Positions 50,123-54,145 of a stretch of DNA of 64,000 nt are shown piece after piece. The position numbers and the translations under genes are program-made. Source of the DNA: an uncultured delta proteobacterium (GTDB lineage Bacteria; Desulfobacterota; Binatia; UBA9968); contig CAVYTU010000014.1 of NCBI GenBank assembly GCA_963771465.1, positions 352,001 through 416,000 of the forward strand, written 5' to 3'. Numbering within the stretch: the first letter of the stretch is position 1; each line of letters begins with the position of its first letter. The notes beneath the pieces were generated by a model that had not been told where the DNA came from, searched no databases, and saw only the letters and a list, made by a program, of their open reading frames with translations.

Positions 50123-52786
50123 ATGGAACCCCAAGCCGACCTCATCCGCAGCATTCCGATCTTCTCCGCACTGTCGCGCGAGGATGTCGCCAAGGTGCTG
50201 GGTAAGATGGAAGAGATTACTTTTAGCACCGGCGCGACGATTTTTAGTCAGGGCGATCACGGCGACGCCTTTTACTTGATTCAATCCGGCGCGGTGCAAG
50301 TGGTCGTCGAAAGCGGCGCGGGCAACGCCGAGGTCGTCGCCATTCTCGGCGCCAAGGATTGGTTTGGCGAGATGGCACTGCTTTCCGGCGAGCCCCGTTC
50401 GGCGACCATTAACACGGTGAAAGAAACCACACTGTGGCGGCTCAGCCGCGAAGCTTGGGATGAACTGATCGATAAACATCCCACTTGGCTGCTCCAGTTC
50501 TGCGCGACCCTTAGCAAACGGCTCTCCTACGTCGACCGGCAATATTCAACCGGACGGGAAGCTTTTAATTCTCTCGCCGAGGAGTTTTACGGCTCGCGCA
50601 CGCCCGGCGAACGGCAATTTTTCCGCCACGCCTCACTGCTCGGCGCCATCGATGCGCAGAATTTCGATCGACTCTTTCGCACCGACGGGCTGACTCAATT
50701 GATTACCGATCTTGGCAATAGTCAGTTTCCGCTGATTCGCCATCTCGGTGACGGCAAGTACGAGCTGCATAGCTTCTTTAAGGATTTCTTGCGCGAAAAA
50801 CTAAATTCCATCGACGGCGCCGAAGCGATGCAGCGGCTCCATGCCGATTTTGCCGAGCGCTACGAAGCTCTCGGCGATTGGCCGCAAGCGTTGCATCACG
50901 CCGTGCACGGCCAAGATTGGTCGACCGTGACCCGTCAATTGACCGCGCAAGGTGAGCACCTGCTTGCCGACGCGCCGCTGTTGGTAAAGAACACGCTGGA
51001 GAGCGTTCCCCAAGAGCAACTCTTGAGCAGCCCCCGCTTGGTCAACTTGAAAAGCAACGTCTTGATCCAGCTCGGCGATATCGCCGGCGCCTATCGAACC
51101 TATCATCAGTTGTTGACGCAAAAGACCGCGGGAGCAATGGGCATGGATACCATTGTCGGCTATCGGCGCATGGCGGAAACTTTGGCGCAGCGAAAAGAAT
51201 ACGCCCAAGCCATCCATCAATTACGCGCCGCACTCAACGTGTTGGACCAAGATAACGCCATGACAGGAGATTTCTCTGAAGTTCCAACGGATATACCGCG
51301 GCTGCAGCCGACGGATGCGACGGCGCATGAGCAGCAGCGCGCCGACCGATCGGCCAACCGTTTGCGAACAACCATCGCTGCGCTGCGCTCGTCGGCGCTG
51401 TCAAAATGGTTCGGCGCGCTGGCCGGACTCGCGGCAGGCAGTTATCTCTGGTTCGGACAGCCCGACATCGGCCTCGATACGGCGGCGACGAAATTGCTCG
51501 GATTGATTACGGCAACCTTAACTTTTTGGGTCTTTCGTTCGCTGCCGGATTACGGCGTCGCGTTGATGTTCGCGATGATCATTGTCCTTACCAATTTGGA
51601 ATCGGCGCAAACGGTCATGGGCGGGTTCGCCAGCACGACATGGTTTATGACGCTTGGTGTCTTGGGCCTCGGTGCGGCAATCACCGGCTCGGGTTTATTT
51701 TACCGGTTGTCACTCCACTTGGTGCGCCTGTTTCCGCTGAGCTTTTACTGGCAGATCATCGCCACGGGTATCATGGGTGTCGTCGTCATGGCACTGATTC
51801 CGCAGCAGACCGCCCGCACGGTCATCACCAGCCAGATGCTGATTAATCTTTCCGAGAGCTTGGGTTACAAGACGCCGTCAAAGGCGTCCACCGGGCTATT
51901 CACGGCGAGTTTTCTCGGCTTGGGGCAGCTCGGTTTTTTGTTTCTGACCGGCTCGACGACGAGCTTGATCGCTTGGGGTCTGCTGCCGACAGATGTGCGG
52001 GAGCAGTTTACCTGGGGCTATTGGTTTCTCGCCGCGCTGCCGCCGACGCTGGTGGTCATCGTTATCATCCTAGGGAGCTCGATCATTCTCTTTCGGCCCG
52101 AATCGCAACCGAAGATTTCCTACACCATGGTGCAGACGCAATTAGAAATTTTGGGGCCGCTCTCGTCTAAAGAATGGATTAGCCTCGCGGTCCTTTGTTT
52201 CACGGTGGGTGGCTGGCTCACGACAGCGCATCACGGCATCGACAGCGCCTGGATCGCCATCATCGCGTTTTCGGTTTTGGTCAACACCGGCATTCTTGAC
52301 TGGAGTATGATGCGCAAGGGCATCGACTGGGAATTACTAATTCACATGGGCGTGACTCTAAGCATCCCGACGCTGTTGAAAGCGGCAAAGATCGATCAGT
52401 GGCTGGTCGACGTGATTTCACCGTTGATTCTGCCGTTCATGGACACCCCGGCATGGTTTTTCATCATCATCGCGCTGTTGACCTATGCGCTGAAATTAGT
52501 TTTCACCAGCTTCCTGGCCGTGGTCACGCTCTGCGTCGCGTTGCTGCCGTTGTCGATCGACGTTGGTATGAATCCATGGATTATCGCCATGATCATTCTC
52601 ATCGCCTCGGAAGTTTGGTTTTTTCCCTACCAGGTCGACTGGCACATGCTCGCCTACTCCACCACCGACGGCAAAGGATTTTTTTACCCGCTCATGTGCC
52701 GGGTAAATCCCATTTATGCCGTAGCCTACATCGCCGCGCTCGTTGCCGCGATTCCATACTGGCGTTATCTCGGTTTGATGAATTGA
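50123..52786 (+). CDS. Fusion: cNMP-binding domain, MalT-like winged-helix/TPR region, SLC13/DASS transporter
   Basis: IFSQGDHGDAFYLIQSG, FGEMALLSGEPRSA; YELHSFFKDFL..LHADFA..ALHHA; C-terminal multi-TM with LIPQQTAR, FLTGSTTSL, FTWGYWF, IDWELL, FFPYQ. Confidence 0.85.
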   Translation: MEPQADLIRSIPIFSALSREDVAKVLGKMEEITFSTGATIFSQGDHGDAFYLIQSGAVQVVVESGAGNAEVVAILGAKDWFGEMALLSGEPRSATINTVKETTLWRLSREAWDELIDKHPTWLLQFCATLSKRLSYVDRQYSTGREAFNSLAEEFYGSRTPGERQFFRHASLLGAIDAQNFDRLFRTDGLTQLITDLGNSQFPLIRHLGDGKYELHSFFKDFLREKLNSIDGAEAMQRLHADFAERYEALGDWPQALHHAVHGQDWSTVTRQLTAQGEHLLADAPLLVKNTLESVPQEQLLSSPRLVNLKSNVLIQLGDIAGAYRTYHQLLTQKTAGAMGMDTIVGYRRMAETLAQRKEYAQAIHQLRAALNVLDQDNAMTGDFSEVPTDIPRLQPTDATAHEQQRADRSANRLRTTIAALRSSALSKWFGALAGLAAGSYLWFGQPDIGLDTAATKLLGLITATLTFWVFRSLPDYGVALMFAMIIVLTNLESAQTVMGGFASTTWFMTLGVLGLGAAITGSGLFYRLSLHLVRLFPLSFYWQIIATGIMGVVVMALIPQQTARTVITSQMLINLSESLGYKTPSKASTGLFTASFLGLGQLGFLFLTGSTTSLIAWGLLPTDVREQFTWGYWFLAALPPTLVVIVIILGSSIILFRPESQPKISYTMVQTQLEILGPLSSKEWISLAVLCFTVGGWLTTAHHGIDSAWIAIIAFSVLVNTGILDWSMMRKGIDWELLIHMGVTLSIPTLLKAAKIDQWLVDVISPLILPFMDTPAWFFIIIALLTYALKLVFTSFLAVVTLCVALLPLSIDVGMNPWIIAMIILIASEVWFFPYQVDWHMLAYSTTDGKGFFYPLMCRVNPIYAVAYIAALVAAIPYWRYLGLMN

Positions 52787-53063
52787 CAACCGTTCGCTGC
52801 GTTCTCGGCGATCTCGTCCGAATCTCGTTATCAACCCTTGTCATAATCGTGACGACAGTTGCAGACCGCAGCAATCCCGTCGTCCGTGCGATTTTCAGTG
52901 GGAAAATTCACTGGGCACGGAGAAATTCAAGCGCATCCAGATCATCAACACCACCTCGTCGTCAATTTTAGAGAACTGAGCAGTAATAAAACGTCCTGAT
53001 AAATGGTCTTTGCGTTTGTTATCCCTACAACTCTTTGCTTGAGCTTCGATTCAACCTATTGAG

Positions 53064-53084
53064 TTTTACTTAGCGTGAGTAAAA
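53064..53084. promoter_or_regulatory. Palindromic putative operator TTTTACT-N7-AGTAAAA
   Basis: Perfect 7-bp inverted repeat 25 bp upstream of TTGACA; related TTTACT-N8-AGTAAA at 53200-53219. Confidence 0.45.
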
Positions 53085-53109
53085 TAATTTCTAAAATGAT
53101 ATTTTTTTC

Positions 53110-53139
53110 TTGACATACCATTTGTTGTGCCTTAATAAT
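53110..53139 (+). promoter_or_regulatory. Sigma70 promoter
   Basis: TTGACA 53110-53115, TAATAAT 53133-53139 (17-18 bp spacer), AT-rich UP-like tract upstream. Confidence 0.7.
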
Positions 53140-53254
53140 CGATCCAGCTACAAAATATGGGAGGGTTCCAGAAGTAAATCGTCTCCGCCTGAGTCATACT
53201 TTACTGCCTGTCAAGTAAAAGCCCGCCCGTGGAATTTTAAAAGGAGGTGCTCTT

Positions 53255-53302
53255 ATGGCTGCTAAGAAAAAAGCCAAGAAGAAAGCCAAAAAGAAAAAGT
53301 AA
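53255..53302 (+). CDS. 15-aa Lys/Ala microprotein MAAKKKAKKKAKKKK
   Basis: AAGGAGGT SD at 53241-53248, ATG 53255, TAA 53300-53302; own promoter and terminator; below the ORF-track cutoff. Confidence 0.75.
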   Translation: MAAKKKAKKKAKKKK

Positions 53303-53385
53303 CTATCTACTAGATGTGGGGTTGTGGTGGTGTTTTAAACCCTCCTTACTCTCAGGCGACAAGGTAACTGTTCTGGTTGCCTAAT

Positions 53386-53428
53386 ACACAGAGCCCTTCA
53401 AGCGTCAGCTTGAAGGGCTCTGTGTTTC
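53386..53428 (+). terminator. Intrinsic terminator-like hairpin
   Basis: Perfect 18-bp stem acacagagcccttcaagc / gcttgaagggctctgtgt, loop gtca, short T tail. Confidence 0.8.
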
Positions 53429-53563
53429 TGCCGCGTCCGCTTCACTTTTGAGTCATTGACTTCGCTGCACTTTCGCTCCTGACGCAACATCCGTTCAGTG
53501 TCCAGCTGTGGGTGAGCGCTCGGGTCGGCTCGGGAAGACTTAGTATTGCGTCGCTCCAATCAA

Positions 53564-54145
53564 ATGGTTAGAGTTATTGCCGTGAATGTATTGTTTCACC
53601 GTCACTCGCTGGCGTTGATTCTGGTGACCTTGAGCGTGGTATCGCTGAAGCCGGCGCCGGCGTTGACGCAGTCGAAGGTTGATTACAAAGCCGTACCGAT
53701 TCTTCAGGCGATGAAAGAAGTCGCTCCGACACCGGAGATCAATCTCGCCACGCCGGACGGTAAAAAACTTTCGCTCAAGGATTTCCGCGGTAAGATCGTC
53801 CTGCTCAACTTCTGGGCGAGCTGGTGCGTGCCCTGTCGCGAAGAAATGCCGGCGATGGAAAAACTCTATCAGGAATTTAAAGACAAAAACTTCGTTATCC
53901 TCGCGGTGGCCGTCAAAGACCGCAAACAAGATGCCGTCGACTTCGCTAAAGAGCTCAAGATCACCTACCCGATCGCTCTCGATCCTGACGCAAAAGTCGG
54001 TCAGGAGTACGGTGCCTGGGGACTGCCCGCTACCTACATCATCGGTCCCAAGGGCGAAGGCCTTGCTCGCGGTTGGGGGCCGGCCGAATGGTACGGCAAC
54101 GGTGCGAGAAAATTGATCAGAGATCTGGTCGACGGTAAACGATGA
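53564..54145 (+). CDS. TlpA/ResA-like thiol-disulfide oxidoreductase
   Basis: LLNFWASWCVPCREEMP, GLPATYII; start uncertain. Confidence 0.9.
   Translation: MVRVIAVNVLFHRHSLALILVTLSVVSLKPAPALTQSKVDYKAVPILQAMKEVAPTPEINLATPDGKKLSLKDFRGKIVLLNFWASWCVPCREEMPAMEKLYQEFKDKNFVILAVAVKDRKQDAVDFAKELKITYPIALDPDAKVGQEYGAWGLPATYIIGPKGEGLARGWGPAEWYGNGARKLIRDLVDGKR

Follow-up and report, generated by a model that had tools for sequence, protein, structure and literature searches.

In the 6.9 Mb genome of an uncultured soil bacterium of the class Binatia (GenBank assembly GCA_963771465.1), an AT-rich gap holds an open reading frame (ORF) of only 15 codons, which would encode MAAKKKAKKKAKKKK, a peptide of ten lysines, four alanines and one methionine. 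The ORF is situated on contig CAVYTU010000014.1 (C14), within a stretch of 64,000 nucleotides (nt) that was analysed as a whole and is called the window in the following; all positions refer to this stretch. A frame so short raises the question whether it is a gene at all and, if so, whether its peptide, its RNA or an effect on neighbouring genes has been kept in evolution. Comparison with related genomes indicates that the region from about 53080 to 53430 on the forward (+) strand is a self-contained transcription unit with a transcript of about 285 nt, that its frame behaves as coding, and that the 15 amino acid (aa) peptide is a miniaturised member of a class-wide, unannotated polycationic family. 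Judged by the same comparison, the transcript itself is a conserved structured RNA, which a preliminary description of the locus had missed.

Conservation and extent of the transcription unit

A promoter/terminator scan found two sites where 1.3 are expected by chance, such that the promoter-like site by itself is at chance level and the case for a unit rests on the comparison with relatives. The 331-nt stretch matches 27 of 41 relatives, among them 21 of 24 genomes of the same genus (79-92% identity) and all five of a second family (68-72%); in a nucleotide search it was found in none of the 11 genomes of a third family. In an alignment of 20 loci of the genus, conservation reaches from the A/T-rich region 5' of the -35 box to past the hairpin, the sequences being unalignable outside these limits, and TTGACATAC of the promoter is unchanged in all 20 loci. 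This conservation across relatives argues that the unit is real and not due to chance. Every element named in the preliminary description (promoter, Shine-Dalgarno sequence (SD), ORF 53255-53302, perfect hairpin of 18 bp, AT-rich gap) is present in the sequence (Table 1). Transcription is predicted from the -10 box to start near 53147, which would give a leader of about 108 nt, close to the previously estimated 110 nt. The GC content amounts to 0.36-0.44 across the gap (52900-53400), compared with 0.51-0.55 in the flanks and 0.557 genome-wide. In most relatives the terminator hairpin is followed by a run of TTTTT; the tail in the window is weaker, and the terminator was not listed by the scan. 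Alignment rows and tallies, here and below, include three unpublished genomes (G005 with locus L009, G361 and G369), on which no claim rests.

Table 1. Features of the transcription unit, with positions in the window
Feature	Position	Strand	Remarks
UP-element-like A/T-rich stretch	53080..53109	+	contains TTTCTAAAATG; 5' of the -35 box; kept in the genus alignment
Sigma-70-type promoter	53110..53139	+	-35 TTGACA 53110-53115; 18-nt spacer; -10 AATAAT 53134-53139 (TAATAAT 53133-53139); 11 of 12 consensus matches
5' block ACAAAATATGGGAGGGTT	53150..53167	+	includes box A GGGAGGGTT at 53159-53167; near-invariant in 26 sequences
Strand B CGCCTGAG	53186..53193	+	5' half of the long-range helix closing the ORF domain
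C-rich box GCCCGCCCG	53221..53229	+	GCCCRCCC in relatives; conserved
Shine-Dalgarno AAGGAGGT	53241..53248	+	6 nt 5' of the AUG; invariant in 26 of 26 sequences
ORF MAAKKKAKKKAKKKK	53255..53302	+	ATG at 53255; 15 aa and stop TAA (53300-53302)
G/U-rich box GTGGGGTTGTGGTGGTG	53316..53332	+	GGUGG repeats; G/T-rich in 39 of 39 unique sequences of the window's type
Box A' AACCCTCCTTA	53338..53348	+	anti-SD-like; conserved; 2 nt (53349-53350) 5' of strand B'
Strand B' CTCAGGCG	53351..53358	+	3' half of the long-range helix
Hairpin H	53362..53382	+	8-bp stem AGGTAACT / GGTTGCCT; loop GTTCT near-invariant
Intrinsic-terminator-like hairpin and TTTC tail	53386..53429	+	53386-53425 perfect 18-bp stem with 4-nt loop, then TTTCT

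Beyond the close relatives, a collection of 185,579 species, each represented by one genome, was scanned with a pattern taken from the RNA 3' of the ORF only, for which about 17 chance matches are expected as estimated from the information content of the pattern. Among the 59 matches obtained, 42 possess an SD and a poly-Lys ORF upstream, and nearly all of these belong to metagenome-assembled genomes (MAGs) whose titles name Candidatus Binatia, Deltaproteobacteria or Syntrophobacter. The remaining 17 come from different phyla and have neither ORF nor promoter nor leader motif, with the exception of one Binatia contig that ends 76 nt upstream, leaving the ORF out of view.

The promoter region, too, recurs outside the genus. 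The sequence TTTCCAAAATG followed by TTGAC, a motif related to the UP-like region of the window, is found in other Binatia families, and the combined pattern matches 55 of 107 unique loci. A similar upstream region belongs to the ribosomal RNA promoter of the window's own genome, which is situated on contig C15 at about 1,006,300 (minus strand), 5' of the 16S rRNA gene; there, an A-tract is followed by TTCCTAGAAT and then TATTGACA, an arrangement similar to the UP-like motif (TTTCYAAAATG ... TTGAC) that is seen in poly-Lys units of different Binatia families. From this promoter likeness, the poly-Lys units and rRNA may be co-regulated with growth rate.

Some matches deserve separate mention. 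Four contigs of Rubrobacteraceae or Rubrobacter (L036, L044, L068, L079) fit the RNA-only pattern, all with an identical spacing of 39 nt, and have no ORF, promoter or leader motif; four matches in a single family suggest that a different conserved element or gene, and not just chance, is behind them. The Binatia unit is also found on contigs titled Chloroflexota (L029), Verrucomicrobiia (L062) and Thermodesulfobacteriota (L047); L029 is identical over the whole unit to L006, the genome of which is placed in the window's own genus. These titles conflict with the placement in GTDB, a sign of mislabelling or mis-binning. In genome G003, two identical copies of the unit are present on contigs C25 and C26, and L050 and L054 likewise lie on two contigs of one MAG. 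These double copies could reflect duplication or assembly redundancy, the unit being single-copy otherwise.

Coding evidence for the short reading frame

SD, ATG, frame and stop are kept in 26 of the 26 loci that have a promoter anchor, which is the conservation that the preliminary description had proposed to look for in related genomes. The peptides of near relatives comprise 13-19 aa (e.g., MAAKKKAKKKKKK, MAAKKKAKKKAKKKKK, MAAKKKAKAKPKKKAKKKK), share the N-terminus MAAKKKA, and differ in length only by in-frame insertions and deletions (indels) of 3, 6 or 12 nt. The lysine codons of the window (five AAG, five AAA) had been regarded from the outset as a sign of selection on the peptide rather than of a simple repeat, and this is borne out by synonymous AAA/AAG and GCN variation among the relatives. 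Parsimony changes, reconstructed on a tree for which 39 unique sequences were used without their ORF, amount to 131 in total and are distributed over codon positions 1, 2 and 3 as 18, 18 and 95, the first two counts being inflated by the ambiguous alignment of the K/A repeat. The stop codon alternates between TAA (64 loci) and TAG (43 loci) in the catalogue of 107 loci described below.

One antisense frame shares its third positions with the sense ORF and, owing to composition, is open in all 107 loci, so that periodicity alone cannot settle the strand. The product might accordingly be a hydrophobic, Phe/Leu/Ala-rich peptide of the minus strand, as in type I toxins, for which the window holds an ORF of 31 aa (53289-53194). 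The openness of that frame, however, follows from base composition, and the 32 third-position changes within the first seven codons cause only 4 amino acid changes in the sense frame but 16 in the antisense frame. Moreover, a 2-nt indel between SD and AUG, which distinguishes L001 and L002 from the other 24 sequences, breaks the antisense frame, and promoter, SD, AUG, stop and T-run all belong to the + strand. Together with the alternation of TAA and TAG, these observations decide for the + strand. As to a type I toxin mRNA in general, 10 of 15 residues of the sense peptide are lysine and the hydrophobic antisense frame is not conserved. We regard an antisense product as extremely improbable. 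The sense peptide, judged by these substitution patterns, is under selection.

Structure of the transcript

The long-range helix formed by strands B and B' is paired in 100% of 26 sequences and contains one covarying pair (CG 22, UA 2, UG 2). Together with hairpin H and the terminator, it is recovered both by the RNAalifold consensus and by single-sequence minimum free energy (MFE) folding, the MFE of -98.1 kcal/mol corresponding to a z-score of -5.29. Long-range stems in single sequences are no better than in shuffles, and the helix is therefore argued from its conserved position and from covariation. Across families, its strands are situated 45-80 nt before the AUG and 45-90 nt after the stop. 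Its GCCUG:CAGGC core is invariant in 54 helix variants, a count in which the anchor took a second GCCTG in L001/L002, L004, L005, L008 and L042 and from which L094, L104, L106 and L114 are omitted for want of an anchor; the flanking pairs vary in a compensatory manner, with CG 38, UA 6 and UG 6 at one position and AU 38, GU 6 and UA 1 at another. In family f11 (families are numbered f1, f2, etc.) the closing helix is longer (11-14 bp), the forms of f9 have CCGCCU:AGGCGG, and three loci possess wholly different complementary sequences at this position. In hairpin H, both partners change in five of the eight pairs, with 96.6% of cells paired. The terminator stem covaries as well (e.g., columns 289:329 with four pair types).

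Other possible pairings are less clear-cut. Boxes A and A' are complementary in 95.7% of cells, without covariation, and A:A' plus B:B' would form a pseudoknot. The C-rich box (CCRCC) and the G/U box (GGUGG) are a candidate helix only, ambiguous in register, the best register being paired to 90% and the second to 87%. The GGUGG box follows the ORF in the window's lineage, whereas in other families it is situated at the 5' end of the transcript, before the closing helix. Box A' carries CCTCCTT, as does the 3' end of the 16S rRNA of the window's genome, to which the SD is complementary. A switch in which A' would sequester the SD was considered and rejected: 97% of cells are pairable, but partition-function folding of 39 sequences gives the pairing a mean probability of 0.00, there is no covariation, and the predicted partners of the SD are inconsistent among the folded sequences. 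Mimicry of 16S rRNA by hairpin H was rejected as well, since its match to the 16S of the genome is confined to a short run and the stem covaries. In most members of the genus, the 5' arm of hairpin H does share a base run with the helix-45 region of 16S; we read this overlap as coincidence.

The search of Rfam (release 15) with positions 52500-54000 returned only chance matches to miRNA and snoRNA families, below the gathering cut-off and with E of at least 0.24, and ten loci of other families gave three sub-threshold chance matches (E up to 1). The structure is thus absent from Rfam, and we found no literature on small RNAs in Binatia. Among described systems, the fold-back structure of hok-type mRNAs is comparable in that SD and a very short ORF are enclosed by pairing of the leader with the trailer. 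Unlike in that type, the window's peptide is hydrophilic and does not qualify as a membrane toxin; its gene is present in single copy and with conserved synteny in the genus, and no antisense partner was seen.

With so much structure, the RNA might be what matters, as a mainly non-coding or dual-function molecule (a protein sponge or regulator), the ORF serving a secondary end such as ribosome loading. Blocks outside the ORF (box A, B/B', A', the loop of H) are invariant across families, the covarying hairpin and the long-range helix go along with the low z-score of the MFE, and the GGUGG box is kept although its side of the ORF differs between families. A ribosome-loading ORF, however, needs no conserved product, and here the peptide is under selection, as third positions, in-frame indels, the motifs MAAKKKA and AKKKAPAKKK and the retained SD indicate; nor did Rfam yield a match beyond chance, even at E up to 10 for the window. 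We consider a mainly RNA-borne function improbable.

A class-wide family of lysine-rich peptides

The pattern SD-ATG-Lys occurs in 89 of 401 Binatia genomes, compared with none for a reversed control. It is frequent in f1 (43/63), f2 (4/4), f4 (6/8), f11 (13/25) and f12 (14/19) and low or absent in f3 (0/27), f9 (0/55) and f10 (1/94). Of 30 loci returned, 23 have ORFs of 16-33 aa, four belong to unrelated longer proteins and three could not be assigned. The ORFs hit in other families encode 24-33 aa (e.g., MAAKKKAKKAKKKSKAKKKAPAKKKGSKKK), and SKAKKKAPAKKK is unchanged in all of 16 sequences; in these forms, which contain the motif AKKKAPAKKK, conservation covers Ala and Pro positions besides Lys. 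A second pattern, KKAPAKKK, is found in 92 of the 401 genomes (reversed control 0), mostly in families missed by the first one (f9 20/55, f15 22/26, f13 10/18, f8 9/20, f18 5/5, f7 3/3). The loci inspected contain ORFs of 20-37 aa and have the promoter motif, closing helix, SD and terminator in common with the unit of the window. In one genus of f9, forms of 64-85 aa (MPAKKKAAKKTVKKAAKKAPAKK...) follow the same leader and closing helix.

The resulting catalogue comprises 107 unique loci, the ORFs of which encode 13-107 aa, or 13-85 aa within the shared unit. All 107 ORFs contain at least 38% Lys, the remainder being A/P/S/T/G/V, and repeats such as KKAPAKK are visible. Concerning f3, H1-like proteins of 84-104 aa with a different leader exist; at the syntenic locus, five of five genomes have ccdA, with no poly-Lys ORF within 1.5 kb. 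In f10, no triple-Lys cluster is present in five of five near-complete genomes. In the window's genome, neither a further gene of such Lys-rich low complexity nor a long H1-like protein was found.

Within the window's genus, locus L171 (G004:C5:178108-179331) has an ORF of 102 aa that opens with MAAAKKKAPAKKKAAAKKKRK and continues into a globular part, presumably of the SWIB/MDM2 type, such that a Lys/Ala tail is joined to a folded domain.

Presence in RNA libraries

Twelve runs recorded as RNA contain at least half of the sampled words of the unit; they derive from seven or more studies, of soil, rhizosphere and ice. Contigs of 179-233 nt from libraries of four studies fall completely within the predicted unit and show 0-2 differences from it (53175-53363, with a word depth of 94.9; 53161-53393; 53169-53354; 53178-53356). 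The flanks (52950-53160 and 53394-53650) are without contig cover in four of four RNA runs, which is not evidence of the transcript ends. In one run, loose ends show a related variant of the ORF and its flanks. These data are consistent with a short, discrete, well-expressed transcript, as presence in RNA libraries rather than as proof.

A contig of 157 nt in the ice metatranscriptome X2 (record 5) matches the Lys-codon part twice and then passes into a different Lys/Ala-coding sequence, so that other Lys/Ala-rich genes, perhaps relatives of the family, are present in that run.

Genomic context

Upstream of the unit, an ORF of 887 aa (50123-52786, +) combines an N-terminal cyclic nucleoside monophosphate (cNMP)-binding domain with a domain of the Na/sulfate-symporter or CitMHS type and may be a cNMP-gated anion transporter. 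Downstream follow genes for a TlpA-like thioredoxin, CcdA/DsbD_TM, GTP cyclohydrolase I (folE) and an M17 aminopeptidase (pepA), the terminator hairpin being situated 115 nt upstream of tlpA. In f1 and f2, tlpA and/or ccdA are found downstream in 25 of 27 loci, the upstream gene being common to only five. In other families, tlpA or ccdA lie within 1.5 kb in none of 26 loci, and the neighbours include an alpha/beta hydrolase, PAPS (3'-phosphoadenosine 5'-phosphosulfate) reductase and enolase.

This arrangement brings to mind a cis-acting leader peptide, in which the sensing of Lys-tRNA or of ribosome stalling on poly-Lys would control tlpA-ccdA-folE. Like attenuator leader peptides, the ORF is short, rich in one amino acid and followed by a terminator shortly before tlpA, and tlpA/ccdA do follow in nearly all loci of the two families. 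Unlike in attenuators, no alternative antiterminator was seen. The stem of the terminator shows free variation and has no complementarity to the conserved boxes. The downstream genes are neither conserved nor related to lysine, the peptide is conserved beyond its Lys codons, at Ala and Pro positions too, and long forms reach 85 aa. An attenuator would have a conserved cognate operon, and tlpA-like, ccdA, folE and pepA do not constitute one outside the two families. Because tlpA-ccdA is not kept and a constitutive-looking terminator precedes tlpA, we reject the leader-peptide reading as very improbable. The same two facts argue that the unit stands alone, as had been suspected from the window only.

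Nature of the peptide and proposed function

Three functions had been put forward at first for an abundant polycationic microprotein: an H1-tail- or protamine-like compactor of the nucleoid, a small ribosomal protein, and a binder of polyphosphate. The microprotein itself is supported by every comparative test that was run and by the occurrence of its sequence in RNA libraries of several studies. Concerning the functions, the first has gained from the Lys/Ala/Pro-rich homologues of 20-85 aa, whereas the second has lost ground through the plasticity in length and the lack of the gene in f10.

Protamines and the C-terminal tail of histone H1 are short or unstructured polycations that neutralise the charge of nucleic acids, and Lys/Ala/Pro rather than Arg chemistry points to the H1-tail kind. 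In kind, the Binatia family has the Lys/Ala/Pro low complexity and the repeat-varying length of such polycations. In the forms of 24-37 aa, the motif of the AKKKAPAKKK type is reminiscent of H1-tail repeats, as an analogy only; unlike protamines, the Binatia peptides are Lys- instead of Arg-based, and they are bacterial, far shorter and devoid of a globular domain. Lys/Ala/Pro-rich H1-like proteins are already known in bacteria, among them Hc2/HctB of Chlamydia, the Burkholderia-type proteins of NF038053 and AlgP of Pseudomonas, and these exhibit low-complexity repeats like those of the Binatia family. Variation in length by repeat number, as in the Binatia family, is untypical of ribosomal proteins; it is described for Hc2, which comprises 165-237 aa and varies by lysine-rich pentamers (PMC2848022). 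The window's peptide has about one-tenth of the size of the known H1-like proteins, and its gene lies in a structured RNA with a helix closing 5' to 3' end, of which the literature on H1-like families, as far as its abstracts go, gave us no description. Very short forms of 13-37 aa, the spread over the class and the RNA architecture were likewise not found in Rfam, Pfam, NCBIfam or, at the level of abstracts, in the literature.

Concerning similarity to curated families, the long Binatia forms reach their best scores, all sub-threshold, on precisely the H1-like models. Against Pfam PF07382 (HC2), the 85-aa form scores 14.7 bits (E 0.034) and the 64-aa form 15.5 bits (E 0.019), the gathering cut-off being 40; against NCBIfam NF038053 (histone H1-like DNA-binding protein), the best long form scores 20.7 bits (E 4e-4; cut-off 80), and against NF038052, the NCBIfam model of Hc2/HctB, 14.7 bits (cut-off 135). 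Because the scores are sub-threshold and driven by composition, the long forms are not assigned to the H1 family. The forms of 24-37 aa match no Pfam or NCBIfam family, ribosomal ones included, at E up to 10, four forms of 26-33 aa having given none in either collection; the window's own peptide falls below the length limit of the Pfam model search. A profile of 16 forms found no match among 1.84 billion representative proteins, and a protein library search with the 64-aa form gave nothing at E up to 1e-3. As a lead only, the ESM Atlas contains a 30-aa form verbatim, and its nearest clusters are hypothetical proteins of 22, 37 and 30 aa.

The peptide might instead be a tiny basic protein of the ribosome, its structured mRNA being an autoregulatory operator. 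The small ribosomal proteins of the kinds bS22, bL37, bTHX and eL41 are, like the window's peptide, tiny, extremely positively charged, missed by gene callers and provided with strong expression signals. The UP region of the promoter is rRNA-like, many RNA libraries contain the sequence, and the CCTCCTT of the mRNA, equal to the 16S anti-SD core and situated beside a conserved helix, can be read as rRNA mimicry as in operators of ribosomal proteins. On the other hand, a length of 13-85 aa that changes by gain and loss of repeats is unlike proteins fitting a fixed rRNA pocket, and the composition is Lys/Ala/Pro- and not Arg-rich. No ribosomal model is matched, and some families appear to do without the gene, the near-complete genomes of f10 having no Lys-cluster gene at all. 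Hairpin H covaries freely and is therefore not a strict mimic of rRNA. A ribosomal role accordingly has a small chance.

Neither is DNA the only conceivable ligand. The peptide could bind another polyanion, notably polyphosphate granules, for which the same polycationic chemistry would serve, and the H1-like AlgP helps to space polyphosphate granules (PMC9239181). Nothing in the locus or its neighbours, however, points to polyphosphate metabolism, and this alternative has a slender chance.

From its composition, its repeat plasticity and the weak H1-like likeness of the long forms, we favour an H1-tail/protamine-like role, and consider it somewhat probable that a stable, strongly transcribed small mRNA yields a free polycation of Lys and Ala with nucleic acid, the nucleoid above all, as its binding target. 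The strong UP-element/sigma-70 promoter would drive an mRNA with structured leader and trailer and an intrinsic terminator, and the ORF would be translated from the consensus SD into MAAKKKAKKKAKKKK. The abundant free peptide would bind nucleic acid, chiefly nucleoid DNA, electrostatically. The closing helix, clamping leader to trailer around the ORF, would set the stability of the mRNA and/or the level of translation together with hairpin H, the terminator and the boxes, and the peptide might feed back on the translation of its own mRNA.

Several points weigh against this H1-tail/protamine-like role. The likeness to H1-like families stays below every curated threshold and is largely compositional, and with the profile and word-based protein searches empty, homology to known H1-like proteins is therefore not established. 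A peptide of 15 aa may bind DNA too weakly to compact it, and RNA, polyphosphate and membranes are bound by Lys-rich tails as well. Not all Binatia possess the family, as the counts for the micro-form pattern in f3 and f10 and the lack of Lys clusters in f10 illustrate. The RNA, with its invariant boxes A, A' and B and the loop of H, is more elaborate than stability alone seems to need and could have a function of its own; feedback is unsupported, as pairing of A' with the SD is not predicted and the partners of the SD vary. The contigs from RNA libraries give no strand, ends or level, and DNA can contaminate such libraries; translation and the peptide are read from the sequence, and third-position periodicity, taken alone, leaves one antisense frame possible.

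A bolder extension of the H1-tail/protamine-like role is rather unlikely: the peptides of 13-19 aa would be the smallest known polycations of bacteria dedicated to the nucleoid or to nucleic acids, and the RNA, with its closing helix, boxes A and A', GGUGG box and hairpin H, would sense the free polycation or the cellular balance of polycations and polyanions and thereby set its own translation or stability, the whole constituting a self-titrating module of charge homeostasis.

Implications

Genes as short as this one are invisible to annotation pipelines. The present one, which bears clear signs of selection on its coding frame, has a strong promoter and forms an RNA structure without counterpart in Rfam, is conserved in 107 unique loci; these represent 14 or more families of a class that is uncultured and abundant in soil. 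Its sequence also occurs in RNA libraries of soil, rhizosphere and ice samples. The natural series of 13-85 aa within one polycationic family could show the minimal peptide for an H1/protamine-like task, and the compact element of about 285 nt is of interest for mRNA stability or feedback control. If the proposed function is true, very small polycations would join the organisers of the bacterial nucleoid and of polyanions, which would be a reason to search other phyla for such genes with composition-aware methods. If, moreover, the charge-homeostasis module exists, the class-wide RNA would be a new kind of cis-regulatory element and the peptide a 'bacterial protamine'.

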